In this document: one piece after another, positions 1,671 to 24,270 of the stretch
Layout: the number at the start of each line of letters is the position of its first letter
Position numbering within the stretch: the stretch's first letter is position 1
Program-made: the position numbers and the translations under genes
The notes under the pieces: model-generated
The model's database searches: none
Seen by the model: only the letters and a program-made list of their open reading frames with translations
What the model was told of the DNA's origin: nothing
Sequence record: PX393109.1
Length of the DNA: 64,000 nt
Source of the DNA: a phage
Reading direction: 5' to 3' (one strand)

Positions 1671-4432
1671 AAATGTTAATTGCTGCTGATATTCATATTC
1701 ATGAGTTTCAGCAACATAACTCGGAAGGGTTTCGGCTAAAGCAGTTTATCAGATTGGCTCATCGTATGGTGGAGATGGGTAAGGAACATAAAGTTACTTG
1801 CCTATCTATCGCTGGCGACTTGGTGCATAAGGCTCAGCACGAGCCTAAGATTGCACATGCTACTTCCCAGTTTATGGACATCCTCGGTGAGCAGTTCTCC
1901 GAGATTTACTACATTCTGGGTAACCACGACATTAACTCCAAATCGGTAGATGCTGATCACTATCAGAACTCGCTGGTGCCGATCCTGGCTGGTAAGGCGG
2001 AGTATGTCGATGGTAAGATCCTGAACTTAGGTGGCCGTAAGGTCGCCTTCAGCGACTGGCGTCCGACTCAGGACTTTAGCTTCATCCAGGATAAAGTAGA
2101 TGTCCTAATCGGCCATATTACCCTGTCCTCGATGTTCGGTCAGGAGTTCGACGATACTAAGTACGATCTGGGATTTGCGGGTGACATCCACCGTCCTATC
2201 AGCATCGGTCATACTCACTCGGTGAACGTGCCTATTCCTCATGGGATGGGTGATAGTCAGGAAGGCAGTCTGGTACTGCTGGATCTCAAAGATCTTTCCT
2301 GGCAGCGGGTTCCGGTAGAGTCTGATTCCTTTAAGTACTTAAAGATGTACTGGGAAGATGAGGTTCCTGTCGGATTGGACAATTACCCACATCTGGTAGT
2401 TCGTGAACGAGCTCAGATGATGGATGCTTCACGCATCTCGGTTAAGTCTATTGATGTCGAAGAAGTTATCGATAAAGTCGTTCGGGCTAAAGGTCTTAAA
2501 GATATCCATGATGAGATGTCTACCCACGTTGATCGTTCCGAGTCGGTATTCGACCTCAACTTTACCTTAAATAGCATTAAGGTAGAGAACTTCCGTAGCA
2601 TCGATAAGTTGGAGCTGGACTTTAAGAAAGGTCTGACTTATCTCTACGGCGAAACCGGTAATGGTAAATCCTCGCTGTTACGAGCTCTGAACTACTGCTT
2701 AACTGGTAGCGACAGTCCTCGTAACGTGGTGAGACTCGGTCAGGACCATCTTCTGGTAGAAGTGATGCTGGAGTATGGTGGTCGTGAATTCCTGATCAGT
2801 CGCCATTGGGCTGGTGGTCAGACGTTCCGAGTCTGGATTGATGGCGATGAGATGGATGGCGGAAGTATTCGTGAGCGTGAAGCTAAGCTCTGGGAGATGC
2901 TGCCATTCCTCGAACACTTCGATCTTCTGTACCGCTCCCAGAACAGTCCTCCGTTCCTTAGCCAGTTCGGATTCAACGAGCGTATCAACCTGATAACGAA
3001 GATGCTTGGTCTTACCGTAATTAACCAGTACGAAGCTGTCGCAAAGGCCTCGGCTAAGAACTGTAAGGTAGAGATCGGTAATCTCCAGACTCAGGTTACT
3101 GCTCAGGAAGAAGTCCTTAAGACGATGGAGGATCACGATTTCTCCAGACTCAAGGACGTAAGTGATCTGGAAGAGGCTAAATCCCGAATCCTTCCTCAGA
3201 TTGATGATATTCGTCAGAAGATCCGGGAGCTGGGTAATTTGGATAGTAAGCTACAGAGTCTTCAGATGTTGGAAGACTCGCTGGCTGCGTTCAATATAGA
3301 CTTTAGCGAAGAAGAGGTTAACTCCGCACTCGCTAATGTCCGTGGCGAAATTACTCTGCTAGATGCCGAAGTGTCGGAAGTAGAAGGGAATATTCGTTCG
3401 CTCCATAACCAGAGCGAATCTCTAACTAAGGAGTTGACTCGTCTGGAACAGGAGTTGACTAAGTTAGAGACAGAAATGCGGAATATTCCCACTACCTGTC
3501 CTACCTGTAAACAGTCTCTTAAGGAAGAGGACATTAAGCAGGTACAGAGCTCTATCAGAAGTAAGATGGATGAGCTCGAGACACAGGGATCTGTATCTGT
3601 GTCTAAGTTGGATGCTGTGGAAGCTGAGATAAGTAAGGCTCCTAAGTCTGATGAAATCCGACAGAAGCTGGCTCTTAAGAATAACGAATTAGTCGAACTC
3701 CGTCGTAAGTCCGGTCTGCTAAACGATGTGGCCACTCTTCGCCAGAAGATTCATACCGTCAATAGCGATGTGGAAGTGCTTAAGAATAAGACTAAGTCCT
3801 ATTCCTCCGTGCAAGTTCTGGAAGAGGAAGTCGCTAAGCTGGAACAAGAGCTTATCGAGATTAACTCCACTATCGGAGCTATGGCTACTCTTCGTAGTCT
3901 TAAGTCTCGTATGGACGATGCTCAGACGAAGCTGGATAAGGCTAACTCTGAGCTGGCTACTCTTCAGCCTAAGTATCAGAAGCTGGTGGAGTATCAGAAT
4001 CTGTTCACTAATAGCGGTGACGTAACTGCTTCTATCTTTAAGGAAGTGGCTGCGATGATGACTGGTGGTGATATGGTCATCTCTACCGTTCGTGAACAGG
4101 CTAATGGAAATATCAAGATTGACTTTGATGTTCAATACAAAGTCGGTGAGTTCCTGATTCCGTATTCTGATCTCTCTGGTGGTCAGCAGAACCTGGTGGA
4201 CGTACTGTTCATCGGTAAGCTGATTAGCCTTAGTAAAGGTGCTGGATGCCTGATTCTGGATGAGTCGTTGAAGAATCTGGATGTGAATACTCTGGACATA
4301 GCTATCGATGCTCTCCAGGACATTCCGGTTAATCACATCATCCTGGTTACTCATGTACCTACGTTCCAGAGATATAATACTAAAATCGGTGCCTACCTTT
4401 CCAATAACGTAACTACGTTTATGGAAGAGTAG
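1667..4432 (+). CDS. fused SbcD(Mre11)-like nuclease / SbcC(Rad50)-like ATPase
   Basis: N-term calcineurin-like phosphoesterase motifs (ADIHIHE, GDLVH, GNHD); then Walker A GETGNGKSS, coiled-coil region with CPTC zinc-hook-like motif, signature LSGGQQ and Walker B LILDE at C-term. Confidence 0.75.
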   Translation: MKMLIAADIHIHEFQQHNSEGFRLKQFIRLAHRMVEMGKEHKVTCLSIAGDLVHKAQHEPKIAHATSQFMDILGEQFSEIYYILGNHDINSKSVDADHYQNSLVPILAGKAEYVDGKILNLGGRKVAFSDWRPTQDFSFIQDKVDVLIGHITLSSMFGQEFDDTKYDLGFAGDIHRPISIGHTHSVNVPIPHGMGDSQEGSLVLLDLKDLSWQRVPVESDSFKYLKMYWEDEVPVGLDNYPHLVVRERAQMMDASRISVKSIDVEEVIDKVVRAKGLKDIHDEMSTHVDRSESVFDLNFTLNSIKVENFRSIDKLELDFKKGLTYLYGETGNGKSSLLRALNYCLTGSDSPRNVVRLGQDHLLVEVMLEYGGREFLISRHWAGGQTFRVWIDGDEMDGGSIREREAKLWEMLPFLEHFDLLYRSQNSPPFLSQFGFNERINLITKMLGLTVINQYEAVAKASAKNCKVEIGNLQTQVTAQEEVLKTMEDHDFSRLKDVSDLEEAKSRILPQIDDIRQKIRELGNLDSKLQSLQMLEDSLAAFNIDFSEEEVNSALANVRGEITLLDAEVSEVEGNIRSLHNQSESLTKELTRLEQELTKLETEMRNIPTTCPTCKQSLKEEDIKQVQSSIRSKMDELETQGSVSVSKLDAVEAEISKAPKSDEIRQKLALKNNELVELRRKSGLLNDVATLRQKIHTVNSDVEVLKNKTKSYSSVQVLEEEVAKLEQELIEINSTIGAMATLRSLKSRMDDAQTKLDKANSELATLQPKYQKLVEYQNLFTNSGDVTASIFKEVAAMMTGGDMVISTVREQANGNIKIDFDVQYKVGEFLIPYSDLSGGQQNLVDVLFIGKLISLSKGAGCLILDESLKNLDVNTLDIAIDALQDIPVNHIILVTHVPTFQRYNTKIGAYLSNNVTTFMEE

Positions 4433-8481: not shown

Positions 8482-9222
8482 ATGTTTGGTAAACATATCG
8501 AGTGTAACTTCGTTCCTGGTACTAAGGTCACGAAGGCTTCACTGGGCAACGGAGGTACCTCCTACTTAGTCCAGAAGCACTTTCTCCAATGGATGCTCCG
8601 TAACGAAATTATCTCCGGGCCAATCCTGGATATGGGATTAGGTCGTGGAGAGATCGGTCTAGCTCTCCGTAACGCAGGATTCGAAGGTCAGATCACAGGT
8701 CTGGACATCTGCGAAGACTACATCAAAGGCAGTGTAAATGTATATAGCGATATCTACATCTGCAATATCGTTGAACTGCTGAAAGATCTTCCTATTGAAG
8801 AGCTGGATAAATTCGGCACTATTATCTGGCTAGATGTGTTGGAGCATCTGGATAGCGAAGATGGGCTTATGGTGTTGTCTAAGCTATTCCAGTCTAAGGC
8901 TAAAATCGTGATCGGTACTCCTAACTACGAGTATCGTCAGCGTGGTACGGAGACTAATCCTTTCGAGGAACATAAATCTCACTGGGACTGCCGACTCCTT
9001 ACCCAGTTTAATCCAGATCTCGCACTGTTCGATAACATTGGTGCTGCTACTTATCTGTGGGATCAATCGGATAAGACCGGTAATATTCCTCTGCTTAAGT
9101 ACGAGCAGTCTAAGGTACAGAAACGTGAAGTGCCTAAGCTGCTGGAAGATACCGGATTTGGTGAAGGAATCTGGGATGTAACAGCTAAGGTGAAGATAGC
9201 AGATCTCTCCGAATTAAAGTAA
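8482..9222 (+). CDS. class I SAM-dependent methyltransferase
   Basis: Motif I ILDMGLGRGEIG, acidic post-I GLDICEDY, motif II-like IIWLDVLEHL. Confidence 0.6.
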   Translation: MFGKHIECNFVPGTKVTKASLGNGGTSYLVQKHFLQWMLRNEIISGPILDMGLGRGEIGLALRNAGFEGQITGLDICEDYIKGSVNVYSDIYICNIVELLKDLPIEELDKFGTIIWLDVLEHLDSEDGLMVLSKLFQSKAKIVIGTPNYEYRQRGTETNPFEEHKSHWDCRLLTQFNPDLALFDNIGAATYLWDQSDKTGNIPLLKYEQSKVQKREVPKLLEDTGFGEGIWDVTAKVKIADLSELK

Positions 9223-9323: not shown

Positions 9324-10232
9324 ATGAAGAAGTTAGATTTGATGATTGGCTGCACTAACCACACAGCAGCTACACTATCCCAGATTCTTAAGATGGGTGT
9401 AAGTCTGGACCAGGTTATGGTAGTTGATCAGGATCATACCAAGCATGGTTCAGTAGCGTTAACTGCTCCTCGTGAGGGATCAGTACGACTTCCTTATTTC
9501 GACTCGGTTATCGAAGAGCTGAATCAGGGTAAGTACCGCAATCCGGAAAGCTACATCTATACCAAAATCGGTAACGATCTGCACGCTATCGAAAGTACGT
9601 GGTCTAAAGCTGACCAATTATCCTGCCTTCGCTCCGAAGCTAATCTGGGAACTATGCCTGATTCGCTGATTGTACCGTCGTTTAGACTGTACCAGAAGCC
9701 TCAGGAGGCGTTTGTACGCCGTGATCGTGTTCACGGGGGCAAGGGTGCAGGCACTATGTCGGACCTTCTGGGGGACTCCCCAATTTTGGTCTGTGATAAG
9801 GCGCCGGACGAATATACTACTTCTCTGGTACTTCAAGCAGATGTTATCGACGGTATGGTAGTTGCCTGGGATCTTCTGGTTAGCCCGAGCGGGTTCAAGG
9901 ATTATGCAGATATTTTCACTATCCAGGGTAAATCCTACGAAGATACTGACTTCACTCCGTACTGCCATAACTACGTTATATCTACTGATGCCCGTGGATT
10001 CGGCTATAGTCATTCGGTAGACCACTTCGAAGATGTTGCGCAATTCGTTGCAGACGCATGTAACGTACGCGAGGGTATGATGAGCACTGAGCTCTTCTGT
10101 ACTCGGGATCTTCAGGAGTGCTTCTATATCGAAACCAACTTCCGTAGTGCGGACATCGTCCTCGCTACTTCACCTGCTGGCTACGCATACGTCCGTCGCC
10201 AGTTAATCGCTAAGGGCGTAATTGAGGAATAA
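9324..10232 (+). CDS. hypothetical protein (302 aa), member of putative modification cluster
   Basis: ORF with own class A motif and RBS; no confident domain assignment from sequence alone. Confidence 0.5.
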   Translation: MKKLDLMIGCTNHTAATLSQILKMGVSLDQVMVVDQDHTKHGSVALTAPREGSVRLPYFDSVIEELNQGKYRNPESYIYTKIGNDLHAIESTWSKADQLSCLRSEANLGTMPDSLIVPSFRLYQKPQEAFVRRDRVHGGKGAGTMSDLLGDSPILVCDKAPDEYTTSLVLQADVIDGMVVAWDLLVSPSGFKDYADIFTIQGKSYEDTDFTPYCHNYVISTDARGFGYSHSVDHFEDVAQFVADACNVREGMMSTELFCTRDLQECFYIETNFRSADIVLATSPAGYAYVRRQLIAKGVIEE

Positions 10233-10235
10233 TCA

Positions 10236-11618
10236 ATGTCAGATTCAAAGGTAGTTACCTGGGGGACGGTGCTAGTAACGGTGGGTATCATACTCGCCAT
10301 TATGTTAGCTCCCACCCAGTTTGGTGCTGTAATGGACTGGAGTAAGTCTGTATTCATATCTCAGTATGGATTCATATTTACCTGGTCTTCGCTGATCTTC
10401 CTAGCGTTCCTGGCATTCTTTGTATTCAGCAAGCATGGTAACATTAAGCTGGGTAAAGGTGCTCCGAAATATAATCGCTTTACCTATTACTCCATGATGT
10501 TTAGTACCGGTATGGGTGTATCCATGATTTATTATGGTGTACTCGAACCTATGTACCATCAGCAGGAGGGTATGTCCGAACGTCAGAATATGGTAACTAC
10601 CTTCTTTGACTGGGGACTTAACGCATGGGCAGTTTATGCAGTCGTAGGGGTGGCATTCGGGTACTTACTGCATGTACGTGGTGAAGACCGTCCGCTTAAT
10701 CAGTTATTCAAGTCCCGAGCTCTGAATAACCTTAATACGATAAGCTTACTCTTCTCTACCATCATAGGCTTAACCCTGTCGTTCGTCTACGCAGTAGGCC
10801 CGATCAGTTCCGGATTTAAAGAGTTCCTGGGAGTGGATGTTGGTCCTTACACCATTATCGCGCTCCTGACTCTGGGTACTGTACTTAGTGCCGTAACTGG
10901 TGTCGATCGTGGGGTTAAGTGGTTATCCAGATATAATGTAATCGTAGCTCTATCTATTATGGCATTCGTTGCTGTAAGTGGTACATTCTTCGAATACCTC
11001 TGGAAGACCATCACCTATTCTGGTAGCTATCTGCTCCAGATTATTCCTATGTCAGTAAACATCGGCAGTACTGCTGAAGAGAAGCAATGGCTGGCTAGCT
11101 GGCCTTATGCTTACTATGCAGCCTGGGTAGGTTGGGCATTATTCGTCGGAGCGTTTGTGGCACGTATCTCTTACGGCCGTACTATTCGCGAACTGATCCT
11201 CGGATGTGTACTGTTCCCTACCATCATCAGTAACGTCTGGTTTACCGTATTCGGTGTAGCTGGTCTACAACATGGTGCTCAGGATATCTTCCAGCTTCTG
11301 GCTAATTTCCCAGGCGGATGGATATTCTCGGTAATTACCCTCGTGTCTGTGATCCTGTTCTTTATTACAGGTCATGACTCAGCAGGTATTACGGTAGAGT
11401 CCATGACCGCTCCTAGAACTCGTGTATTCTGGATTGTAAGCATGGGTGTAGTTGCTGCTGCACTTAACTGGGCAGGTGGCGACGTAGTAACTGTAACGAA
11501 GACTCTGGTAGCTGTATCGGCTGTTCCGGTACTGATTGGGGTATTGTGTATTCTATTCGGGTTCCTCAAGATCTTTGTACCTAAAGTATTCTTGGCTAAG
11601 GAAACTCCGCCTGTTTGA
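10236..11618 (+). CDS. BCCT-family transporter (betaine/carnitine/choline transporter-like)
   Basis: Multi-TM protein with Trp-rich BCCT signature region AWVGWALFVGAFVARISYGRTIRELILG, as I recall it from BetT/CaiT/OpuD. Confidence 0.7.
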   Translation: MSDSKVVTWGTVLVTVGIILAIMLAPTQFGAVMDWSKSVFISQYGFIFTWSSLIFLAFLAFFVFSKHGNIKLGKGAPKYNRFTYYSMMFSTGMGVSMIYYGVLEPMYHQQEGMSERQNMVTTFFDWGLNAWAVYAVVGVAFGYLLHVRGEDRPLNQLFKSRALNNLNTISLLFSTIIGLTLSFVYAVGPISSGFKEFLGVDVGPYTIIALLTLGTVLSAVTGVDRGVKWLSRYNVIVALSIMAFVAVSGTFFEYLWKTITYSGSYLLQIIPMSVNIGSTAEEKQWLASWPYAYYAAWVGWALFVGAFVARISYGRTIRELILGCVLFPTIISNVWFTVFGVAGLQHGAQDIFQLLANFPGGWIFSVITLVSVILFFITGHDSAGITVESMTAPRTRVFWIVSMGVVAAALNWAGGDVVTVTKTLVAVSAVPVLIGVLCILFGFLKIFVPKVFLAKETPPV

Positions 11619-11704: not shown

Positions 11705-12316
11705 ATGAAGTCACGACTGATTATCAGCCCACATCACGATGATGAGATTCTGGGTTGCGGAGGTATTATGAGCAAATTCCGCGATGACCAATTCTTCATC
11801 CTCGAAGTAACTGCTCCGGACGAGACCCGTCGTGGCGAAGCCGAAGCAGCATTCGGTGTCTATCCGAATATCAAAGAAGTACATTGCCTGGAGCGTAACG
11901 ATGCCTCCACAGGCGATGGTATGACTCAGAAGGATATTCCGCAATTGGCTAAGGATATTGCGGACTATGTTGCTAAAATCAGGCCGGATGTAGTCTATAT
12001 TCCGTTCAGTAGCCTACACCAGGACCATCAACTAGTTAATCATGCTGCTCGTGTAGCTCTCCGAGCGTATAACTGGCTTATCCTGGAATATGAGTATGCC
12101 GAGTCCCTGACCCAGTTCGGTCAGATGGAACCTAATTACTTCGAGCGTCTGAATAAGGACGATATTGAGTGTAAGTGCCAGGCTATGGGACGATTCGACT
12201 CCCAGATTAAGTCAGACCGAGATACCCAGAGTATCTTAGCCCTAGCCACCTTACGTGGATATTCCGCCCAGTGGCCGTACGCCGAAGGGTTTCGCTTAGT
12301 TCGTCAAATTGGATAA
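11705..12316 (+). CDS. PIG-L/LmbE-family deacetylase (N-acetyl-sugar deacetylase-like)
   Basis: N-terminal ISPHHDDEILGCGG and HQDH motifs characteristic of the zinc-dependent LmbE/PIG-L fold. Confidence 0.65.
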   Translation: MKSRLIISPHHDDEILGCGGIMSKFRDDQFFILEVTAPDETRRGEAEAAFGVYPNIKEVHCLERNDASTGDGMTQKDIPQLAKDIADYVAKIRPDVVYIPFSSLHQDHQLVNHAARVALRAYNWLILEYEYAESLTQFGQMEPNYFERLNKDDIECKCQAMGRFDSQIKSDRDTQSILALATLRGYSAQWPYAEGFRLVRQIG

Positions 12317-12322
12317 ATAATT

Positions 12323-13357
12323 ATGACCACCAAAGTAGCTTTTATCATCCCAACCTATCATCGTCTGAAGTCGGTACTCCGTCAGATTCAGTCGTTCAAA
12401 GATGCTAAAAAGACTGACGACTCTATTGAGTATCGCTTCTTCTACTTTATTCAGGATGCCTCCGAAGAAGATAAGGCAATTCTGGAAGAGCAGTTTGGTG
12501 GGGATGAGCAATTTAATTTCTGTCATAGCCCTAAGTACGAAAATCCGGTAATCGGAGAAATCCGTGCCCATGCTCTGGATAAAGCATGGATTGTAATGGA
12601 GAAGCAGGACTGGTGCCCAGACATCTGCTACTTCGTGGATGATGATGTCTGGTTCGCCGACGATATCTTCCATCTGGATCGGTCCATTATCGACTTCGAG
12701 GGATCTGAGTTTGAGATGGCGTTCGTCCGTAGCTTCAAGAACCGTAACTACAAGATTGTTGAACTCTGCGATCGTCAGTCCCATAATAACACTGCTCCGG
12801 CTACTGACCTGGGTATTATGGTCAAGACTAGCGAGAAGATGTTCTGGCTGTTCGATAAGACCTTCCAGCAACTCACTGTAGGTGAGGATTGCTACCTGTT
12901 GTTTAAAGGTATGGCGATGGGATGGAAAGTGGGCCAGGTAACCGGTACTGGTAGCTCGTTCTACTGGGATGAGAACTGGTTAATGGACACCTCTTCTAAT
13001 GGCGGTGGTATTCACGAAGTCACCGTAGCTAAGCTAGGCTACTCTCCGAAAGATATGGTAACTCGTAATGAGCTGCTTAGCCGTCCAGATAAGTCCTACG
13101 TACAGTGGCATTGTGCAGATATGTTCCACTATGACTCTGCAGATAGCTCGTTCCGTCGTATTCGTCCCAACATCCAGGAATACTTGAAAGAGTATTGTAC
13201 GGCTACCGAAGATGCAATTATCCGAGCTCCTGGTGCTGGGGTAATGAAGTTCGATGGAACTAACCGTACGGTATTCGGATTAAACAAAGACTATTCCTAC
13301 TTAACTGATCTCAATGATAAGTGGCTGAGTTGGGCATCAGCTAATTCGCTTCTTTGA
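12323..13357 (+). CDS. GT-A fold glycosyltransferase (family 2-like)
   Basis: N-terminal AFIIPTYHR and DXD-type YFVDDD motifs. Confidence 0.5.
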   Translation: MTTKVAFIIPTYHRLKSVLRQIQSFKDAKKTDDSIEYRFFYFIQDASEEDKAILEEQFGGDEQFNFCHSPKYENPVIGEIRAHALDKAWIVMEKQDWCPDICYFVDDDVWFADDIFHLDRSIIDFEGSEFEMAFVRSFKNRNYKIVELCDRQSHNNTAPATDLGIMVKTSEKMFWLFDKTFQQLTVGEDCYLLFKGMAMGWKVGQVTGTGSSFYWDENWLMDTSSNGGGIHEVTVAKLGYSPKDMVTRNELLSRPDKSYVQWHCADMFHYDSADSSFRRIRPNIQEYLKEYCTATEDAIIRAPGAGVMKFDGTNRTVFGLNKDYSYLTDLNDKWLSWASANSLL

Positions 13358-13404: not shown

Positions 13405-14484
13405 ATGAAAATTGCAGTAACTAACTTTTCGCCATGCAGCGATAAATCCATCATCGCCAGTAACACTCTGGCATCCTGGTTAGCCTACGGACTTCAGGCG
13501 GACTTGCTGGATGATACTCCTAAGTTTGTTAAGGCTATGGAAGATGGCACCAAATATGACGTGATCATCGCCGTCAATGGTGTTCCTACCTTCTGTAAGT
13601 TCCGCGATGAGATGTATAAATTCTGGGTAGACCAGGCGGACCTCGGAGCTAAGTTTTACTGGATTGGTCAAGATTATTCATCACGTATGCGTATCCAGGG
13701 TCCGCAGTGGCGACACATCACAGCAGCTACGACATTTAAAGTAGTAGCAGCATTCGAGCGTACTTCCTGGGGTAATCAGTACTCCCCTAGCGAAGAGAAC
13801 TATCACCACATTAACTGGAACCGTCTTACCTACGTTCCTGGTCGTAAGCCTCGCTACGGCTCATCTGATAAACCAGACAATAGCCTGCTGTATTACGGTG
13901 CTGCTCGTGAAGGTCGCTTCCATAAGTTCACTCAGTACTTCTCCCAGCAGGATGGTCTGGAACTGTTTATGTCGGTGCCTAGCTACAAAGCTCAGATGTC
14001 TATCGCTAAACATACTGGTGGTCTTGCTGGATTTGACGGCTACGAGCAGGAAAACTGGGAAGAGCTGGATCCTAAAGAACGTAAGTGGCTGGGGCCTGCT
14101 GCTCCTATTAACTGGCTGCCTAAGTTTAAGCTGTCAGAGATGCTGGATGAAGTGGCTAAATACGCAGCGGTACTGCTTATTGAAGACTGGAACTCTAGTA
14201 ACTCGTTCTATACCAGCCCACCTAACCGTTATTATGAATACCTGAGCTCTGGTACTCTGATGTTGGTGGATAAAGATGCTGCCGGAACAATAATCCGGAG
14301 CGGCGTCCCCGAAGAGCTGCTGGCTCCTCTGATCGTCTCCAGTAATGCGGAGATTGCAGAGAAACTGAAAGATCGTGATGCTCTGCTGAAACATCAGTAT
14401 GAGAATCTGTATCTGCGCAAGGATTACGCACAAGAACTTCAGGATGAAGTAATCGACTACTTTACCAAAGAAGGTATTCTTTAA
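13405..14484 (+). CDS. DNA beta-glucosyltransferase-like protein (T4 BGT-like, GT-B fold)
   Basis: Several colinear blocks resemble T4 beta-glucosyltransferase as I recall it (MKIAVTNFS vs MKIAIINMG; YDVIIAVNG; YYGAAREGRFHK vs YGGSFRSGQRE; RYYEYLSSGTLMLVD vs RVWETMASDAVMLID). Recall-based, needs alignment. Confidence 0.5.
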   Translation: MKIAVTNFSPCSDKSIIASNTLASWLAYGLQADLLDDTPKFVKAMEDGTKYDVIIAVNGVPTFCKFRDEMYKFWVDQADLGAKFYWIGQDYSSRMRIQGPQWRHITAATTFKVVAAFERTSWGNQYSPSEENYHHINWNRLTYVPGRKPRYGSSDKPDNSLLYYGAAREGRFHKFTQYFSQQDGLELFMSVPSYKAQMSIAKHTGGLAGFDGYEQENWEELDPKERKWLGPAAPINWLPKFKLSEMLDEVAKYAAVLLIEDWNSSNSFYTSPPNRYYEYLSSGTLMLVDKDAAGTIIRSGVPEELLAPLIVSSNAEIAEKLKDRDALLKHQYENLYLRKDYAQELQDEVIDYFTKEGIL

Positions 14485-15455
14485 TGTCAACACCGTTAGG
14501 TCTGCATTACGAAGGACTCCTTGGGATGATAAATCCTGAGGAGTTACGGGAGTATGTGGAGTATAACCGTGAACGTACAGAGGTTTATTATAAGAAGGAG
14601 GTGCTTAAGCTGCCTCCTCCGTGGACGGAACATAAGTGGATTAGTAAGTTCAAATTCACTAACGTGTTCCGTAAGCACGATCGTGAAACAGTGTGGGCTA
14701 TTAAGAACATTCTGGAGAACGATTCTTTAAGCTGGGAGAGTAAAGCACTTAATGTAGTACTCTTCCAGATGATAAACCGTGGTGATTCATATATGGATCG
14801 CTTCCGCAGAGTCCTTCCTCTTTATGAGATGAGCTATGACGACATACATAACATGGGTCGCGAAGAGCTACGTCGTTATGAGGATGGTCCTCCGTTCACC
14901 GCTCCACAGCAATCAAATGCCTACTTCCTTAGCACAGCAGTTAAGATGGCTAATGAAGTATGTCCAGAGGATATTAAGTACAGTGTAGCTGCCAGAGCCT
15001 ATCTGGTGAAGACCTACAGTGATCCTATCTTATGGGCATGGAAGTCTCCGTTCGCTACCGAGGCTATCGAGCATCTGTTACAGGTATCTGGATTAGGTCC
15101 GTTCATGGCATATCAATGCTGGGCAACTATGTCCTACTCTAAAGAGACTGCGTATACAGATAATGACGCTATCGTATGTGGACCTGGGACTCAGGATGGG
15201 GTATGGTACATGATTAATGACCAGAATCCTCCCTGTGGTTATCAGGTATTCGTGGAATGGTGGTATCAGAACATCAAAGAGATATGTGCACATTTCGGGT
15301 ATTCATGGGAACCGGAGAAATGGTTCCACTTCATGCCAGAGGATGAGCGATTCTATACTCGCCAGATGTTCACCAACTCATTCTGCGAATTCTCGAAACT
15401 ACATAAACTGAATCACGAGATCCGTATGAGACCTCGCTGGTATAAGTTTAGCTAG
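14484..15455 (+). CDS. hypothetical protein (323 aa), member of putative modification cluster
   Basis: ORF translationally coupled (TAATG) to upstream gene; no confident domain. Confidence 0.5.
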   Translation: MSTPLGLHYEGLLGMINPEELREYVEYNRERTEVYYKKEVLKLPPPWTEHKWISKFKFTNVFRKHDRETVWAIKNILENDSLSWESKALNVVLFQMINRGDSYMDRFRRVLPLYEMSYDDIHNMGREELRRYEDGPPFTAPQQSNAYFLSTAVKMANEVCPEDIKYSVAARAYLVKTYSDPILWAWKSPFATEAIEHLLQVSGLGPFMAYQCWATMSYSKETAYTDNDAIVCGPGTQDGVWYMINDQNPPCGYQVFVEWWYQNIKEICAHFGYSWEPEKWFHFMPEDERFYTRQMFTNSFCEFSKLHKLNHEIRMRPRWYKFS

Positions 15456-15517: not shown

Positions 15518-15544
15518 GGGAAAGATTCTTAATTGGAGAGAATA

Positions 15545-16267
15545 ATGAGAGACTATAGTATCCCAGGCTACAGTGTAATTATGTCTGGTGCGCAGGGTAC
15601 CGGTAAATCTACCCTGGCTAAAGGTTGGGAAGAATCAACCGAATGTACCTTCCGTGCAGTACAGACTCGTGACCATCTTCCTCTGGGAGTAACATCCCAT
15701 ATGGATATTCTGCGCTTAGCTGTAGAAGATCCTATGGAAGCGGTAGAGTTCCAGCTGCGTCTTATTCGTCAGCGAACTCAGATGTTCAAGGATGCCTACA
15801 ATCGTGGCGAGTTGATCGTCAGTGATCGTGCGGTATTCGATTCGTACGTTTACTTCCTGCTGCATAACAGTATGTTTGCCAGCCAGGAAGCTCGTGATGA
15901 GGCATTACGTCTCAGTAACGAGTCTATTGATTATTATAACATGACTCTGTTCTTCAATACGAAGGATAAGAGTATTGAGGACAATAACTTCCGTGTTGTT
16001 GATCCTGAATACTCTGTAGCAGTCAGTTCTACTCTCCTTAAGGTAACTATGCGTGCCTACGAGGAGCGATTCGGTGCTGCGTTGTGTAATTCTGTAACTC
16101 TGAATCATCCGGTGTATCCTGGATCAATCACAGCTCGTTTTACTAATACTGGTAAAGGTATTATGATCCTGAACGAGCCATCTGGTATGATCCCTCAGGA
16201 GGCCCGTCTGGAGTTACTGTCCTCTGCAGTTAAGTCTATTGATTCAGTGCGTAAGGACTCTAAATGA
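15545..16267 (+). CDS. P-loop nucleotide/deoxynucleotide kinase (dNMP kinase-like)
   Basis: Walker A MSGAQGTGKST near N-terminus, DR..FDSYVY lid-like region; size and layout resemble dNMP/dNK kinases. Start at ATG 15545 (track start is TTG). Confidence 0.55.
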   Translation: MRDYSIPGYSVIMSGAQGTGKSTLAKGWEESTECTFRAVQTRDHLPLGVTSHMDILRLAVEDPMEAVEFQLRLIRQRTQMFKDAYNRGELIVSDRAVFDSYVYFLLHNSMFASQEARDEALRLSNESIDYYNMTLFFNTKDKSIEDNNFRVVDPEYSVAVSSTLLKVTMRAYEERFGAALCNSVTLNHPVYPGSITARFTNTGKGIMILNEPSGMIPQEARLELLSSAVKSIDSVRKDSK

Positions 16268-17337
16268 TCTCGGTAATTCGCGGTAACAGTAATACTGAAA
16301 TCCTGGTTAACAGCATCAATACTATGGATAAGGCTGGTGAGTTGCAGAAGTCCAGAACTTCTGTTAACTCTTCGGCGGTAGTATCCATCGGTCATGCTGT
16401 AGTTGAGTTAAGTAATCCGATTAATCGTTGGATGGCTCATCCAGAACGTAAAGACAATATCCTCGGAATTATGGGGGAAGTATTGTGGGTACTGTCTGGT
16501 GGCTATGCAATCGATAACTGGATGTCGATTATGGTTCCTCGCGCTAAGATGTTTAGCGATGATATGGTTACCTGGCGTGGTGCTTACGGTGAGCGTCTGT
16601 ATAACTACGATCAACTCCAGACTGTAACAGACCGCCTCCGTTCTGACCTGGGTAACCGTAAGTGCGTGGCTACTATTCACGATCCCAGCCGTGATTCTGA
16701 TGTAGGTCTGGTAAACAGCATTGGCAGCATCAATACCGCAGATATGATCTGCAACATTGCTCTATCGTTTAAGTACCGTAATGGTGGTCTGGACTGCACG
16801 GTATTCAACCGTAGTAATGATCTAATCTGGGGATTGACTAACGTTAATCTGGTGGAGTTCACGATCATCCAGGAAATCATCGCAACTATGCTCAAAGTAG
16901 ATATGGGCAACTATGTGGTGATGACGGATGATCTCCACTGGTATCCGGAAGTGTCGAACATCAAGAAGCAGGTAAGTAATATCCGAGCTTATGTTGACGA
17001 CATTAATGAAGCTCCGGTAACTACGATTGATCTCGGATCACTTAATTCCTGGTATAAGATCCGTACCTACTTCCAGCATTACATCGCTACTCTTGAAGAT
17101 GCTGCTTCTCGTTATAATAGCGATCACAGTATTCTAGAATACGTAATGGAAGATGTTGGTCGAGAGTTCCAACCAGGATCAACTCTGGATGTGATGATGT
17201 GGTTAGCAGGCGCTCATTATCTATGTAAGACTACTGGAGCTCACATGTCTATCCAGTGCGAGCATCTGGTTAATTCACCATTCGTGAAATGGGTCGCGAA
17301 CCGCCTCGGGGATAAGTCTCCGTTTATTCTGGAATAA
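16264..17337 (+). CDS. thymidylate synthase / deoxypyrimidylate hydroxymethylase superfamily enzyme (ThyA-gp42 fold)
   Basis: Colinear ThyA-family motifs: EVLWVLSGG, WRGAYGERLY, DQLQ..RKCVATIHDP, catalytic-Cys region MICNIAL, NRSNDLIWGL, DDLHWY. The RSND and C-x-N features resemble T4 dCMP hydroxymethylase more than canonical ThyA. Confidence 0.7.
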   Translation: MISVIRGNSNTEILVNSINTMDKAGELQKSRTSVNSSAVVSIGHAVVELSNPINRWMAHPERKDNILGIMGEVLWVLSGGYAIDNWMSIMVPRAKMFSDDMVTWRGAYGERLYNYDQLQTVTDRLRSDLGNRKCVATIHDPSRDSDVGLVNSIGSINTADMICNIALSFKYRNGGLDCTVFNRSNDLIWGLTNVNLVEFTIIQEIIATMLKVDMGNYVVMTDDLHWYPEVSNIKKQVSNIRAYVDDINEAPVTTIDLGSLNSWYKIRTYFQHYIATLEDAASRYNSDHSILEYVMEDVGREFQPGSTLDVMMWLAGAHYLCKTTGAHMSIQCEHLVNSPFVKWVANRLGDKSPFILE

Positions 17338-17420: not shown

Positions 17421-18020
17421 ATGAAAGATCTTTTTAAGGTACCAGTGTGTACCAATAACGTGAATCGTTTCGCAGGTAAGCAAGTACTGTCTCATCGCTC
17501 TACTATCTCGGAGCATAGCTTCGAAGTTACTTACTACTCTACTCTGATTGTTCAGAAACTGGTGATGGATGGATTTTTAACTGCTGAGCAGGGTCTGGAA
17601 GTAAATCAGTACTCGTTGGTTCACGACATTCCAGAGATCTTTACAGGTGATGTCCCCTACACTGCTAAGGCTCGCTTCCCAGAGTTAAAAGAGACTCTGA
17701 ATAAAGTTGAGCAGGAAATCTGGGAAGAGGTACTTCCTACTTTCCGCACTCCTGCATCTGCCGAAGCTAAGTTCATCTGTAAAGTTGCAGATGCTATTGC
17801 GGTATCTCGTGAGATCATGACTGAGTTCAGCATGGGTAACATCTTCTTTGGCGAAAGCGAGCTGGAGAACTGCCGCAACATCTTCAGTACCTGCTTCAAT
17901 AAGTACAAAGACGAAGTGAGTGATGATGTATGGATGGGTACTCTCCAGTCTCTTCTCCATATGGCACATGGTAGTTCAATAGAGCACCTGGTTAAAGAGA
18001 CTATTGGCAATGCAGATTAA
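17421..18020 (+). CDS. HD-domain phosphohydrolase (YfbR-like 5'-deoxynucleotidase)
   Basis: HSFEV...VHDIPEIFTGDVP...KVADAIAV matches H...HD...D metal-binding pattern of YfbR-type HD nucleotidases. Confidence 0.65.
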   Translation: MKDLFKVPVCTNNVNRFAGKQVLSHRSTISEHSFEVTYYSTLIVQKLVMDGFLTAEQGLEVNQYSLVHDIPEIFTGDVPYTAKARFPELKETLNKVEQEIWEEVLPTFRTPASAEAKFICKVADAIAVSREIMTEFSMGNIFFGESELENCRNIFSTCFNKYKDEVSDDVWMGTLQSLLHMAHGSSIEHLVKETIGNAD

Positions 18021-18330
18021 TATTCCTGAAACTGTTTACGTTGAGAGCTCGTTCGCTCGGACAATTGGTGCTGACGATCAGCACAGTAGTCGTATTGCTC
18101 CAATGAAGCTGCGTAAGAGTGGCTACATTGTTGGAGCTGGCTCATCGGTAGAGTTTCCGGTAGATAGTACGGTAACTGTCGACTCTATCTCTAATCTTTC
18201 TGTATCTTACCTGGGCTTAACTGCTCAGGTATTCTCTACAGACGAAGGTAAGTGGATTCGTCTGACTAACTCTAACAAGAACCATGCAGTACGCATCCAT
18301 GCGGGTCAGAGTTTAGTCTATGGAAATTGA
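18010..18330 (+). CDS. hypothetical protein (106 aa)
   Basis: ORF overlapping 3' end of HD gene; no domain recognised. Confidence 0.4.
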   Translation: MQINIPETVYVESSFARTIGADDQHSSRIAPMKLRKSGYIVGAGSSVEFPVDSTVTVDSISNLSVSYLGLTAQVFSTDEGKWIRLTNSNKNHAVRIHAGQSLVYGN

Positions 18331-20957: not shown

Positions 20958-20982
20958 CGGAGGTTTATTTTTGGAGTTAAAC

Positions 20983-23900
20983 ATGTTTCTGAATCACAAT
21001 TTAGTTGGCGAAGTAGACTATGTCATTATCGGGGACGAGCGCGAGAATAATGATGCTCCTCCGTTTGCTGCATCGAATGCTGGCCAAACTCTTGATGTAG
21101 CGCTAATTACAGCTGGGGTACATAACAAAGTTGGTCTGATAGAGATCAACAGAGATGGTACTTTCGAAGAGCTGTCTAACATAGACGAAATCCGTGATAA
21201 GGATGGTCTCAACTTTTACGAGCTGTGTGAAAAGCATGGCGTTAAGCATGTAATGACTTTGGGTCGCCAATTAGCTGCGACTATATCCCCAGGCTATACG
21301 CATAAGAAGACTCTGGATAAGCTACTGAAGTTCCCTCTGGGTAACATACCGGAGTATAACTTTAAGCTAGCTGTAGTCATGCACCATGCCCAGGTTGAAC
21401 GTAATCTGGATTCTGATCCTGGTATACTTGATTCGTGGATTGATCGTTTTAAGTTTCTGGTATTCGGCCAGAAAGAATCCGAATATAATGTAGAGTGGGA
21501 ATTCGTCGACTGGAACGGCCTCCAGGAGTTCCTTAACGACATTATGTGGTCTGGGTACAAAGGCTATCTCGGCCTCGACTATGAGTCTAACGCAGCTGAT
21601 TTATTCTCGGTAGACTTCCGGATCACTGGATTCAGTATCGCTAAGAAGATTGGTGATAAGGATGCCAAGTCCGTATGGTACAATGTTACCGGTAAAGAGA
21701 CTCCGGAACAGCTAGGATTCTTGCGTGACTTCCTGGTTAAGTTCCAGGAGCAGATCGTGGCGTTTAACTGTCCGTACGAGATTAAGACTACGTGGCATTG
21801 GTTAGACGTATTCTGCAAGTTTATCGATGCGATTGTAACTCTGACTATGCATGGCGAACGGAGCTCGTTGAAAGATGCTGCTCGTCGTTATTTACATGCA
21901 GACTTCTGGGAAGGGTCGGTACACGAATGGAAGGATCGTTGGGCAGCTATCTTCAAGGATATGAAGAAGCGTTGTACTCCTGAGCAGATTGCAGAGATTC
22001 AGTCTGGCGAGTTCAATATTGAGCATCACCTAGCTCTTAAAGCTGAGTACGAGAAACTCGTGGAAGCGGCTCCGACTAAGGCGGCTAAGAATCGTATTCC
22101 TGTTAACTTCAACCAGTTTATGCTGGATAAGATAGCCGAACTATCGGAGGAGCTCGAAGAATCCGAGATTATTTACTTGGCATCGTTCTACCCATATGAG
22201 TGGGGTGCGATTCCTCGTGAGATTCTTGGGGAGTACTGCTGCTATGACTCCGCGTACGGTGTGTTCATCCACGAGATGTTTTACGATAAGTATAAGGATG
22301 GGTATAACGTATATATGTTACATCCATACCTGGCATCTATCTTCGAAGCTAACGGTATTCGTTGGGATGACGAAGAGGCGACTAAAGAGTACGACTATTG
22401 CATGAGCAAAATGTCGGAGCACTTGGTTAGCCTAATCCCTAACCTTAAGTTACCTCCTGACCAGATGCTTACAGCTCGCGACTTTATCTATCGAGAGTTG
22501 CCGTACGAGAACGTATGGTACACTCCTGGTGGACAAGAGCGCCGTAAGATGGTTACTACTCTGGCTGGGAAGATTGCTGATCTGTCAGGATTCTTCAACC
22601 CTAACAGTAACGATAAGGCTAATAAGGAGAAGTTCTGGAAAGCCTATCTTACTGATGAAGTAGAGATGTGTACCATGCTATGGTCTGTAATGGACCAGCT
22701 TAAGGTGCATGACTACTGGGATAAAACCCTGCTGGCGATCTCTAAGGGGTTCGTGCCTAAGGATTCGGAGAAGCTGGAGAGGGAATTCTTCCGGGAGTTT
22801 CCGGTAGATGAGATCTTAACCAGGATCATCCAATTCGGGGATACTGCTGAGTCTAAGCATGTTCGGGAGTTAATTGCCATGTGCGTCCAGGACGGTCTGG
22901 AAGCTTATGAAGAGCGATTCACGAATAAGTTTAAAGCGGATGTTCTCGATGCCCAATTGGCTATTCACCAGTTGATGTTGGGAGTTAATCCGGATGACGA
23001 GTCTACCTGGAATACATCGTTCCGTATGATGGTTGACCTGAAGATGTATAAGCGTCACTACAAACAGATTGCTACATACATTGATGGTAAGGTAGGACGC
23101 CAGACGGTATGGGCAGCTAAACTACGTGATGGTTTACCTCCGCTGCGAGTTCGTAAGTACGACTGGGATAATCCGAAGTTGCAGGATGGTGAAGATTGCT
23201 ACATCATGACTCCGGACTTTAACTCGTTGGCTGCGATTACATCTCGTTGGCAGGCAGGTATTCATAACGTTCCTGGCGACAGTACTCTGCGTAACATCTG
23301 GGTATCTAAGCCGGAGGGTGGCCTGTGGTACCACCAGGACTTTAGCCAGGCTGAGCTGGTGATGGTTAGCGTGTTCGCCGATGACTCGGATATGAAGAAC
23401 GTATTCTTATCTGGTGGCGACATGCACCGATTCGTTAGCTCGATTGCATACCAGAAGTCTGAACCTGAAGTAACTGATGTTGAGCGTAAGGGTGGTAAGG
23501 CGATTAACTTCGCATTAGTATACCAGTCTAGCCTTGAATCGGTAGCGATGGTTGCTACTGGTGGTGATATGGAGCGTGCTCAGAATCTGATGGACACGGT
23601 ATTCGGTAAGTTTACCGGTCTTAAGGCATGGATTGATGCTACCAAGAAAAATGGCTTCGAGACTGGGTATGCTTATGGTTACTTCGGTAACCGTATCAAC
23701 CTGGAAGGTACCAACGTTAACTCTACTTCGGTGAACTATCCTATCCAGAATACTTCGTCGATGGTTGCTGGCGCAGGTATGTACTTCCTGGATGAGGACT
23801 TTAAGCAGTCCAATATGGAGGCCGAGACTCACATCATGGTCCACGACTCCTTGGATACCACATCCGGAATCAACGAGATGTTCAAGGTGTTCCAGAAGAC

Positions 23901-24270
23901 TCGTGAGAATATGGAGGGGGCTATTCGTGAACTCTGGGATATGCCTATGCGCACTGATATCGAATTCGGTGCTCGGGGCGGTTCCTTGATGGGTCTGGAT
24001 GACTATGGAGTTAACGAAGATGGTTCCGGATGGCTGATCGTTGAGGGTCGTGAGTCTGCATTGGAGAAACTACTGGAAGCTCTCGATCAGTATAGCCAGT
24101 GGACTCCATACGTAGAGATCCTTAAGGAGAAGGAGAAGTTAAACTCTATAGCTAACAGCTTCAACTCCAAATCCGGTATTCGTTCCGACGGTACAGGCTG
24201 GGGATGTAAGTATATCGAGCTTAAGGCTAAAATAACTCTGGAGCCTAAACATGGCGAGAAAGCAGCGTAA
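20983..24270 (+). CDS. family A DNA polymerase (Pol I-like) with N-terminal extension
   Basis: Motif A DFSQAELVMVS, motif B KGGKAINFALVYQ, motif C VHDSLD; N-terminal region has DEDD-like exonuclease motif LGLDYES. Start at ATG 20983 (track start is TTG). Confidence 0.8.
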   Translation: MFLNHNLVGEVDYVIIGDERENNDAPPFAASNAGQTLDVALITAGVHNKVGLIEINRDGTFEELSNIDEIRDKDGLNFYELCEKHGVKHVMTLGRQLAATISPGYTHKKTLDKLLKFPLGNIPEYNFKLAVVMHHAQVERNLDSDPGILDSWIDRFKFLVFGQKESEYNVEWEFVDWNGLQEFLNDIMWSGYKGYLGLDYESNAADLFSVDFRITGFSIAKKIGDKDAKSVWYNVTGKETPEQLGFLRDFLVKFQEQIVAFNCPYEIKTTWHWLDVFCKFIDAIVTLTMHGERSSLKDAARRYLHADFWEGSVHEWKDRWAAIFKDMKKRCTPEQIAEIQSGEFNIEHHLALKAEYEKLVEAAPTKAAKNRIPVNFNQFMLDKIAELSEELEESEIIYLASFYPYEWGAIPREILGEYCCYDSAYGVFIHEMFYDKYKDGYNVYMLHPYLASIFEANGIRWDDEEATKEYDYCMSKMSEHLVSLIPNLKLPPDQMLTARDFIYRELPYENVWYTPGGQERRKMVTTLAGKIADLSGFFNPNSNDKANKEKFWKAYLTDEVEMCTMLWSVMDQLKVHDYWDKTLLAISKGFVPKDSEKLEREFFREFPVDEILTRIIQFGDTAESKHVRELIAMCVQDGLEAYEERFTNKFKADVLDAQLAIHQLMLGVNPDDESTWNTSFRMMVDLKMYKRHYKQIATYIDGKVGRQTVWAAKLRDGLPPLRVRKYDWDNPKLQDGEDCYIMTPDFNSLAAITSRWQAGIHNVPGDSTLRNIWVSKPEGGLWYHQDFSQAELVMVSVFADDSDMKNVFLSGGDMHRFVSSIAYQKSEPEVTDVERKGGKAINFALVYQSSLESVAMVATGGDMERAQNLMDTVFGKFTGLKAWIDATKKNGFETGYAYGYFGNRINLEGTNVNSTSVNYPIQNTSSMVAGAGMYFLDEDFKQSNMEAETHIMVHDSLDTTSGINEMFKVFQKTRENMEGAIRELWDMPMRTDIEFGARGGSLMGLDDYGVNEDGSGWLIVEGRESALEKLLEALDQYSQWTPYVEILKEKEKLNSIANSFNSKSGIRSDGTGWGCKYIELKAKITLEPKHGEKAA

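Follow-up and report, generated by a model that had tools for sequence, protein, structure and literature searches.

Does the ThyA-like enzyme encoded at this locus act on dUMP or on dCMP, and is the group that it places on the base a methyl or a hydroxymethyl? The question arose in a first-pass annotation of a phage DNA stretch of 64,000 nucleotides (record PX393109.1; the whole stretch is hereafter called the window), which had recognized in a 357-aa ORF an enzyme of the ThyA/gp42 superfamily with hydroxymethylase-like features, but had considered its specificity undecidable by eye. The same annotation had pointed out that this specificity decides which base is modified, and on that point our analysis is in full agreement. 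The ORF very probably encodes a folate-dependent dUMP 5-hydroxymethyltransferase, and is organized as follows.

16264..17337, + strand: predicted dUMP 5-hydroxymethyltransferase (5-hmdUMP synthase) ORF, ATG start, 357 aa plus stop
16264..16989, + strand: ThyA-like catalytic core, aa 1 to ~242
16990..17334, + strand: helical C-terminal domain, ~aa 243-357 (115 aa), in place of the short ThyA tail

Affiliation with the ThyA/gp42 superfamily was confirmed by matches to the Pfam profile PF00303 (Thymidylat_synt; E 4.7e-12, 46 bits, cutoff 24.3) and to PHROG 3676 ('thymidylate synthase'; E 7e-71), both of which lie far beyond chance level. The superfamily residue set is complete: C163, E72, Y108, R183, D186, H225 and Y227 are all present, as equivalents of the Cys nucleophile, Glu58, Tyr94, Arg166, Asp169, His207 and Tyr209 of E. 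coli ThyA. The AF2 model of the protein is of high confidence (pLDDT 92, pTM 0.93). Between the ORF and its counterpart in phage EP_H11 there are 34 synonymous and 13 non-synonymous codon differences, none of which affects a catalytic residue, and the ORF is under purifying selection. It is not a canonical ThyA, however, since every one of the six NCBIfam thymidylate synthase equivalogs scores below its cutoff (29-44 bits, against cutoffs of 108-405). 'Thymidylate synthase' is nonetheless the annotation given to its counterparts in IME392 and EP_H11 and in most of the related phages. No second ThyA was detected in the window by single-sequence phmmer over all 333 ORFs, a test of low sensitivity, and for IME392 a single thymidylate synthase homologue is listed (PMC12686479).

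The window is ~98% identical to coliphage IME392, and the ORF product shares 99.7% identity with IME392 AXY86077.1; the ThyA homologue of IME392 is already in print as the presumed source of 5-hmdUMP. Above 48% identity to the query we found only IME392, EP_H11 and one metagenomic relative (83%). The closest relatives retrieved by BLASTP and tblastn (E ~1e-24 to 1e-71) form the dUMP hydroxymethylase clade. In BLASTP these are the enzymes of Acinetobacter phage Ab1-TPeters (48%, 8e-71), RP13 (ORF86; 34%, 9e-60) and ViI-like phages (41%, 2e-58), the SPO1-like gp29 orthologue (33%, 4e-34), PhiW-14 gp231, named deoxyuridylate hydroxymethyltransferase (33%, 1e-32), and the M6-like PAE1 enzyme (33%, 7e-24); E. 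coli ThyA and T4 gp42 gave no BLASTP match to the query. The phages of these relatives are documented makers of 5-hmdU or of 5-hmdU-derived thymidines (PMC8989533, PMC5889632, PMC5977210). A signature of the form Asp ... Cys-Asn ... Asn is shared by all six reference relatives and by 110-111 of 112 database homologues, and the query appears as a divergent branch of the dUMP hydroxymethylases.

The active site was mapped by three independent and concurring alignments (phmmer to PDB ThyAs and MilA, and two runs of MAFFT), whose reference sequences were verified to be 100% identical to E. coli ThyA and to T4 gp42. Two stretches contain the most informative residues.

16741..16755, + strand: active-site loop D160-M-I-C163-N164, from the alignments, with Cys163 as nucleophile
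16810..16848, + strand: segment R183-S184-N185-D186 ... G190 ... N195, equivalent to E. coli R166, S167, C168, D169, G173 and N177

Relative to E. coli ThyA, C163 corresponds to C146, N195 to N177, D160 to L143, D186 to D169, S184 to S167, R132 to R126, E72 to E58, Y108 to Y94, and H225/Y227 to H207/Y209. Conversely, His147 is replaced by Asn164 and Trp83 by Phe97, and the Trp80 position is occupied by Ala or a gap in the alignments. The catalytic Cys reported in the first pass is thus Cys163; the DQLQ motif lies at aa 116-119, the 'SRR-type' motif reads N131-R132-K133, and the cytosine-specifying position indeed lacks an Asp, its residue being Asn195. The reported C-x-N, in contrast, was a misreading, as the sequence is C163-N164-I165, with Asn immediately after Cys, whereas T4 gp42 has C-T-N. 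RSND is present (aa 183-186), but it does not serve as a T4-like cue, being shared by SPO1-like and M6-like dUMP hydroxymethylases.

According to published rules, Asn at the E. coli N177 position denotes dUMP and Asp dCMP, Leu at the L143 position denotes a methyl product and Asp or Glu a hydroxymethyl one, and D169N is the mark of flavin-dependent 5-hydroxy-dCMP synthases (PMC13326640). In T4 dCH the substrate water is activated by Asp145, which precedes Cys by three residues, and the D145N variant is inactive; in ThyA the C-terminal tail seals the site (PMC6400193). Finally, Ala176/Lys133 of MilA, against Ser/Arg elsewhere, go with a preference for ribose over deoxyribose (PMC5175136). In the query, Asn195 is predicted to specify uracil, and Ser184, together with Arg132, deoxyribose. 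Asp160 lies three residues before Cys163, at the position of both E. coli Leu143 and T4 dCH Asp145; the first pass had correctly seen hydroxymethylase-like features in the protein. Asp186 is the predicted equivalent of the folate-orienting Asp, and its retention argues for an enzyme that depends on folate, not for a flavin-type 5-hydroxy-dCMP synthase. Leu143, Trp80 and Trp83, which guard hydride transfer in ThyA, are lost, and the sealing tail is replaced. The full conservation of ThyA folate-reduction residues that had been named as evidence against a hydroxymethylase is therefore not observed, and the hydroxymethylase reading stands. All published discriminating positions, namely E. coli N177, L143, D169, S167/R126 and the C-terminal tail (PMC13326640, PMC6400193, PMC5175136), agree in predicting dUMP as substrate and a hydroxymethylated product. 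The specificity previously held to be undecidable is in this way indicated both by the alignment positions and by the nearest relatives.

These residues are highly conserved within the family: among 112 homologues, Asp occupies the D160 position in 111, Cys163 is invariant, Asn164 is found in 108, 110 carry Asn where E. coli ThyA has N177, and all of them carry Asp where it has D169. The residue preceding Asp160 is Ala159 in the query and Lys in 97 of the 112 relatives. A Ser/Thr-x-Tyr motif which, in combination with the Asp three before Cys, has been described as the dCH hydroxymethylation signature (PMC6400193) is absent, the query reading G106-A107-Y108. The SPO1-like, ViI-like and PhiW-14 enzymes, too, have neither Ser nor Thr two positions ahead of the catalytic Tyr. 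Because these reference dUMP hydroxymethylases lack it, the motif seems specific to cytosine enzymes, and T4 dCH Ser94-x-Tyr96 was dropped as a general hydroxymethylase marker.

The N-terminal extension proposed in the first-pass annotation could not be substantiated, as position 10 of the Pfam profile aligns at query aa 21 and E. coli Met1 at ~aa 15. Since the conserved Tyr (Y227, E. coli Y209) is followed by 130 residues in the query and by 55 in E. coli, the C-terminal part accounts for ~75 of the 93 additional residues. The C-terminal residues are predicted to be helical (helices at 263-283, 290-298, 307-324 and 339-351) and, in a fold comparison of the model, superpose on the extra domain of MilA, which that enzyme requires for folding. 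This C-terminal extension is a trait of the whole family.

The genes relevant to pyrimidine metabolism and DNA modification in the window, with one orphan ORF from the same neighbourhood, are the following.

13405..14484: orphan ORF, 359 aa
14484..15455, + strand: PF18723 protein ('HMUDK_hel', aGPT-Pplase clade 1 type), 323 aa; PF18723 E 4.8e-35
15533..16267, + strand: P-loop kinase, 244 aa; AAA_28 E 2e-9, PHROG 2107 'thymidylate kinase' E 1e-11
17421..18020, + strand: HD-domain YfbR-like 5'-deoxynucleotidase homologue, 199 aa; PF12917 E 1.7e-14
57513..57983, + strand: dUTPase (dUTP to dUMP), 156 aa; PF00692 E 1.9e-35
58269..58892, + strand: dCTP deaminase-like protein (dCTP to dUTP), 207 aa; PF22769 E 9.5e-24

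The stop codon of the kinase gene overlaps the start of the hydroxymethylase gene (ATGA). Homologues of this kinase were found only in IME392, EP_H11, Acinetobacter phage Ab1-TPeters and RP13, and always adjoin ThyA-like, HD or replication genes. The kinase has no sequence match in the PDB, and a profile built from four homologues matches the ViI-like 5-HMUDK and the PhiW-14 dNMP kinase over the P-loop alone. Since the order kinase, ThyA-like, HD, replication is kept in Ab1-TPeters and RP13, we favour a nucleotide kinase, which would act on 5-hmdUMP, over a cryptic 5-hmdU DNA kinase. The PF18723 protein is of the same family as PAE1 Orf49 and of the M6 gp55 type, a family whose presence marks gene clusters for thymidine hypermodification; aGPT-Pplase1 has been recorded in the literature for RP13, EP_H11 and IME392. 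The HD protein probably depletes thymidine nucleotides, judging by its homology, and the order ThyA-like then HD recurs in PAE1, Ab1-TPeters and a Logan contig (L009). In Ab1-TPeters and L009 the wider gene order around the hydroxymethylase is repeated as well. A dCTP deaminase is likewise given for IME392 (PMC12686479, Table 1). The surroundings expected of a dUMP hydroxymethylase, an enzyme tied to a hypermodification context (PMC5889632, PMC8989533), are thus all found: dUMP supply, kinase, HD enzyme and PF18723 protein.

The conserved block beside the gene comprises the PF18723 protein, the orphan P-loop kinase, a PIG-L-type de-N-acetylase, three orphan proteins and a full-length phage-encoded BCCT (betaine/choline/carnitine-type) transporter, which may import a group destined for DNA; it includes neither the known 5-hmdU DNA kinase nor the amino acid:DNA transferase. 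The orphan ORF of 359 aa has only two homologues in 5.8 billion sequences and an AF2 pLDDT of 42.5, and PDB sequence searches with the 344-aa and 302-aa ORFs returned nothing usable. PF18748 kinase, PF18724 ADDT and Nmad5 were not detected in the window by single-sequence phmmer over all 333 ORFs, again a test of low sensitivity. The ViI gene order (~320-aa ORF, kinase, ThyA homologue, ~190-aa ORF) was considered and rejected as a case of synteny: the flanking proteins are not similar by BLASTP, and the upstream kinase of ViI-like phages is a true PF18748 5-HMUDK, which that of the window is not, so the correspondence is only superficial.

A reaction scheme can be proposed, in which the chemistry and substrates are predicted from what was observed for the ORF: its fold, its homology, the identity of key residues and its genomic surroundings. 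By analogy with the superfamily, Cys163 would attack C6 of dUMP. Asn195 would hold the base, and Ser184, His225, Tyr227, Arg183 and, from the partner subunit, Arg132' would hold the sugar and phosphate. Methylene-tetrahydrofolate, activated by Glu72, would donate CH2 to C5, and the C5 proton would be taken by Tyr108 and a bound water, yielding an exocyclic methylene intermediate. Because the solvent-excluding Leu143, Trp80/Trp83 and tail are absent and Asp160 lies three residues before Cys, water would add to this methylene in place of the tetrahydrofolate hydride, and 5-hmdUMP would be released along with tetrahydrofolate, instead of dTMP with dihydrofolate. For its dUMP the phage would draw on a dCTP deaminase and a dUTPase of its own; phosphorylation of 5-hmdUMP is probably the task of the P-loop kinase, which is translationally coupled to the hydroxymethylase, and the HD enzyme probably clears thymidine nucleotides. 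The family-A polymerase of the phage would then insert 5-hmdU where T would go, and further changes to the base are probably made by the products of neighbouring genes, the PF18723 protein among them. The assignment builds on homology and on residue rules most of which were worked out for ThyA, T4 dCH and MilA; no solved dUMP hydroxymethylase structure was among the PDB search matches.

Could the ORF nevertheless encode a divergent but true thymidylate synthase, providing dTMP for phage replication? PF00303 scores above threshold, the related phage genes carry that name, and Cys, the dUMP-binding residues, Asn177, Asp169, Glu58 and Tyr94 are all kept. We consider this very unlikely, given the replacement of Leu143 by Asp and of His147 by Asn, the disappearance of Trp80 and Trp83, the exchange of the ThyA tail for a 115-aa helical domain, NCBIfam equivalog scores far under cutoff, nearest relatives from 5-hmdU-making phages and hypermodification marker genes all around. 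A cytosine-specific hydroxymethylase, acting on dCMP as T4 gp42 or on CMP as MilA, would make cytosine the modified base; its occurrence here is highly improbable, with Asn195 instead of Asp at the specificity position, even if MilA is the top PDB match both by sequence (E 3e-13) and by fold, and if RSND and the Asp three before Cys are common to T4 gp42. Two cytosine-type homologues (e.g. P0007) read C-T, M-R-S-N-D and Asp instead, Ser184 and Arg132 speak against a ribonucleotide substrate, a T4 gp42 search does not pick up the ORF, and the dCTP deaminase and dUTPase of the phage supply dUMP. The likelihood of a flavin-dependent pyrimidine C5-hydroxylase of the RB69 gp48 / DLP3 gp80 type is negligible, as the query has neither the diagnostic D169N (Asp186, with Asp in 112 of 112 relatives) nor N177D (Asn195).

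A further alternative retains dUMP and the exocyclic methylene but not plain 5-hmdUMP as product, the methylene being trapped by a nucleophile other than water or handed over directly to a partner; the enzyme would then feed a long-linker phosphate/sugar thymidine modification of the SP-15, YerA41 or Carin-5 type. [quoted passage not shown] This alternative is nonetheless unlikely: the active-site signature equals that of the proven 5-hmdUMP makers SPO1 and PhiW-14, the sequence gives no sign of a second substrate site, the homologous C-terminal domain of MilA is distant from the active site (PMC5175136), and SP-15 itself relies on enzymes of another family. As its 'thymidylate synthases' are ThyX-type, SP-15 was discarded as an enzyme model.

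Hydroxymethylation of dUMP, the preferred reading, is a known first step of thymine replacement in some phages, and the query is most likely an ordinary member of that family; as the family and the residue rules are already published, the enzyme call alone is routine. It would imply that the base modified by the phage is thymine (via 5-hydroxymethyluracil), not cytosine, and that the database label 'thymidylate synthase' is functionally misleading for this gene and for hundreds of relatives. The downstream genes of the lineage do not correspond to the characterised pathways of ViI, M6, PaMx11 and SH-Ab 15599. We tentatively raise the possibility that 5-hmdUMP feeds a not-yet-described thymidine hypermodification in the E. 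coli phage lineage of IME392, EP_H11 and the metagenomic relative. As a starting point for further work, the enzyme call itself flags an easily grown coliphage lineage as a likely carrier of hypermodified thymine.

Among known systems, canonical ThyA (E. coli, PDB 1aob/2tsc) shares with the query the fold, the covalent-catalysis residues and the dUMP-binding residues, including Asn177, but has Leu143, Trp80, Trp83, His147 and a C-terminal tail that seals the site, none of which the query retains. T4 gp42 resembles the query in RSND, in the Asp three before Cys, in the lack of a ThyA tail and presumably in hydroxymethylation chemistry; its base-specificity residue, however, is Asp179, where the query has Asn195. 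MilA, the mildiomycin CMP 5-hydroxymethylase (PDB 5jnh, 5b6d), is ~20% identical to the query and combines an Asp at the base-specificity position with Ala176/Lys133 favouring ribo-CMP; in place of these features of MilA/BcmA CMP hydroxymethylases the query has Asn195, Ser184 and Arg132. The flanking hypermodification genes of ViI and M6 differ from those of the query, in whose window PF18748 kinase and PF18724 transferase went undetected. The greatest overall likeness is to the phage dUMP hydroxymethylases (SPO1 gp29, PhiW-14 gp231 and those of ViI-like Ackermannviridae, M6/YuA-like phages, RP13 and Acinetobacter phages), with 33-48% core identity. These enzymes share with the query the Asp three before Cys, Cys-Asn, (N/Q)-R-S-x-D and Asn, a length of ~350-380 aa that includes a helical domain at the C-terminus, and the proximity of kinase, HD/dUTPase and thymidine-hypermodification genes.

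The 357-aa ThyA-superfamily protein of this phage is, as predicted from its active-site residues, most likely a dUMP 5-hydroxymethyltransferase. It is encoded by:

16264..17337, + strand: ThyA-superfamily protein, 357 aa, ATG start

Pfam assigns the protein to PF00303 (E 4.7e-12, clearing the curated cutoff), and PHROG places it in family 3676, 'thymidylate synthase' (E 7e-71). At the DNA level, the window is 97.7% identical to Escherichia phage vB_EcoM_IME392, whose AXY86077.1 is 99.7% identical to the protein, and 95.8% identical to phage EP_H11, from which the gene differs by 34 synonymous and 13 non-synonymous codon changes that leave the catalytic residues untouched. The family matches, the copies in other phages and the ratio of codon changes indicate a real gene under selection.

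The protein was aligned with E. coli ThyA (100% identical to PDB 1aob), T4 dCMP hydroxymethylase gp42 (100% identical to the T4 genome records), a fragment of MilA, the CMP 5-hydroxymethylase of mildiomycin biosynthesis (taken from a PDB alignment), and phage ThyA homologues (ViI-like, SPO1-like, PhiW-14 and M6-like PAE1); Acinetobacter phage Ab1-TPeters and Ralstonia phage RP13 were added later, and 112 database homologues were also compared. The equivalences with E. coli ThyA (Ec) agree between the phmmer and MAFFT alignments.

Residue equivalences between the protein and E. coli ThyA
E72: Ec E58
Ala or gap: Ec W80
F97: Ec W83
Y108: Ec Y94
R132 / K133: Ec R126 / R127
D160: Ec L143
C163: Ec C146
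N164: Ec H147
N182: Ec Q165
R183, S184, N185, D186: Ec R166, S167, C168, D169
G190: Ec G173
N195: Ec N177
H225 / Y227: Ec H207 / Y209

Most motifs named in the first-pass annotation are present (DQLQ at 116-119, RSND at 183-186, and Cys163), although its 'SRR' position reads N-R-K (131-133) and its C-x-N is in fact C163-N164.

Published rules bear on the specificity that this annotation had called ambiguous. At Ec 177, Asn specifies dUMP and Asp dCMP; at Ec 143, a bulky hydrophobic residue accompanies a methyl product, Asp/Glu a hydroxymethyl one; and flavin-dependent 5-hydroxy-dCMP synthases are marked by D169N (PMC13326640). In the ternary complex of the T4 enzyme the substrate water is activated by Asp145, three residues before the Cys, and D145N is inactive (PMC6400193). 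The ribose preference of MilA derives from Ala176 and Lys133, where deoxy-specific enzymes have Ser and Arg (PMC5175136). At Ec 177, 143 and 169 and MilA 176 and 133, our protein has Asn, Asp, Asp, Ser and Arg, respectively, pointing under these rules to uracil, a hydroxymethyl product, folate dependence and deoxyribose; this pattern is common to 110-111 of the 112 homologues.

The PF00303 match would suit a true dTMP synthase, which Asp160 nevertheless makes very unlikely, and every NCBIfam thymidylate synthase equivalog scored far below its own cutoff on the protein. A dUMP-derived product other than 5-hmdUMP is somewhat less improbable, if still unlikely. Asp160 would suit a cytosine hydroxymethylase, but Asn195 renders that reading highly improbable. 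One element of the proposed signature of the T4 enzyme, Ser/Thr two residues before Tyr, is absent from the protein (G106-A107-Y108); because in the alignment it is missing from the SPO1-like, ViI-like and PhiW-14 enzymes too, we treat this element as specific to cytosine enzymes. A flavin hydroxylase is scarcely credible with Asp at Ec 169.

The predicted dUMP hydroxymethyltransferase has its closest relatives among phages (BLASTP): homologues in Ab1-TPeters (48% identity, 8e-71), RP13 (ORF86, 34% over 328 aa, 9e-60) and PAE1 (33%, 7e-24), a ViI-like enzyme (41%, 2e-58), an SPO1-like gp29 orthologue (33%, 4e-34) and PhiW-14 gp231, named deoxyuridylate hydroxymethyltransferase (33%, 1e-32). 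BLASTP of the protein gave no match to E. coli ThyA or T4 gp42, and phmmer with T4 gp42 matched nothing in the window. SPO1, PhiW-14, ViI and M6 are reference phages for 5-hmdU or 5-hmdU-derived thymidines in DNA, and their ThyA homologue is described as a dUMP hydroxymethylase (PMC8989533, PMC5889632, PMC5977210).

The surrounding genes include:

14484..15455, + strand: PF18723 protein (E 5e-35), upstream
15533..16267, + strand: P-loop kinase, upstream, ATGA overlap with the start codon of the ThyA-like gene
17421..18020, + strand: HD YfbR-like nucleotidase, downstream
57513..57983, + strand: dUTPase
58269..58892, + strand: dCTP deaminase-like gene

The last two provide a route to dUMP, and phmmer detected no further ThyA-like ORF in the window. 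The orphan kinase, translationally coupled to the ThyA-like gene, has homologues only in IME392, EP_H11, Ab1-TPeters and RP13, and is a candidate kinase for either 5-hmdUMP or 5-hmdU in DNA. After the HD gene come primase, helicase and a 1099-aa family-A polymerase; the order from kinase to polymerase recurs in Ab1-TPeters and a metagenomic relative, and slightly altered in RP13. A 108-aa ORF without family match (18004..18330, +) lies between the HD gene and the primase, annotated in EP_H11, unannotated in IME392 and kept in the metagenomic relative (113 aa). In the polymerase (20971..24270, +), Pfam matches only the polymerase domain (aa 766-1001) and assigns nothing to the N-terminal 750 aa; a PolX-like protein (39788..40561, +) and an NAD-dependent ligase (40626..42569, +) are also encoded. 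This trio is reported in hypermodified-T phages of the SP15/YerA41/RP13-like type, and the polymerases there have an N-terminal UDG domain.

More interesting than the enzyme call is what the neighbouring conserved block may do with 5-hmdU; besides the PF18723 protein and the orphan kinase, it encodes a BCCT transporter, a PIG-L deacetylase and orphan proteins. The PF18723 protein shares its family with PAE1 Orf49 (M6 gp55 type) and has been reported in RP13, EP_H11 and IME392 as aGPT-Pplase1 (preprint 10.1101/2025.03.26.645540). The full-length BCCT-family (betaine/carnitine/choline) transporter (10236..11618, +; PF02028, E 4e-92) sits within this DNA-metabolism and modification block, falls under every NCBIfam substrate-specific cutoff, has close copies among genuine phage genomes only in IME392 and EP_H11, and keeps its position in the metagenomic relative (75-83% identity). 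Adjoining it is a PIG-L/LmbE-type de-N-acetylase (11705..12316, +; PF02585, E 7e-14). In the hypermodified-T phage Carin-5, a GlcNAc deacetylase is predicted close to the polymerase (PMC12686479), a parallel that hints at an amino-sugar step in DNA modification. Three co-directional orphans of the block (9324..10232, 302 aa; 12323..13357, 344 aa; 13405..14484, 359 aa; all +) match no family in Pfam, PHROG or NCBIfam; for the 359-aa one, 5.8 billion sequences yielded only two homologues, and AF2 gave no usable model (pLDDT 42.5). Upstream of the block, the metagenomic relative (Logan contig SRR21194222_4349) carries extra genes, among them a phosphatidylserine-decarboxylase-like protein (3750..4406; PF02666, 31 bits, above cutoff) and one weakly matching a DXD glycosyltransferase; at this place in the window lies a weak SAM-methyltransferase-like ORF (8482..9222), so the modification genes of this lineage vary. 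A second small cluster (43204..45977, +), with DUF7217 (E 2e-77) and weak MptE-like and group-1 glycosyltransferase matches, may be a sugar-transfer module. A NADAR-domain gene (54483..55142, +; PF08719, E 8e-27) may serve anti-defence, as proteins of this family have been associated with reversing DNA ADP-ribosylation.

IME392 AXY86077.1 has been listed, as the only thymidylate synthase homologue of that phage and beside a dCTP deaminase, as 'necessary to the biosynthesis of 5hmdUMP' (PMC12686479, Table 1). RP13, EP_H11 and IME392 were inferred to have modified thymidines, with no 5-hmdU DNA kinase detectable in the group (preprint 10.1101/2025.03.26.645540). Neither work analysed the active-site residues or tested the protein, and our residue-level call is thus a firmer version of an existing inference: the protein is a new member, itself uncharacterised, of an enzyme type already known.

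Its extra length is not N-terminal, as had been proposed: Pfam places aa 21 at profile position 10, and E. coli Met1 falls near aa 15. The stretch beyond the conserved Tyr227 (Ec Tyr209) runs to 130 residues, versus 55 in E. coli; ThyA closes off its site for hydride transfer with the C-terminal tail (PMC6400193). The AlphaFold2 model (pLDDT 92, pTM 0.93; 96-sequence alignment) has a helical domain at residues ~243 to 357. PDB searches found no dUMP hydroxymethylase structure. With Foldseek, the model matched ThyAs over the core only (TM ~0.5, normalised to query length) and MilA over ~360 aligned columns (E 5e-17, TM 0.71/0.79). MilA likewise has an extra C-terminal helical domain, of five helices, away from the active site and required for solubility (PMC5175136); as family members span 346-383 aa, the extension is therefore no oddity but a family trait common to MilA.
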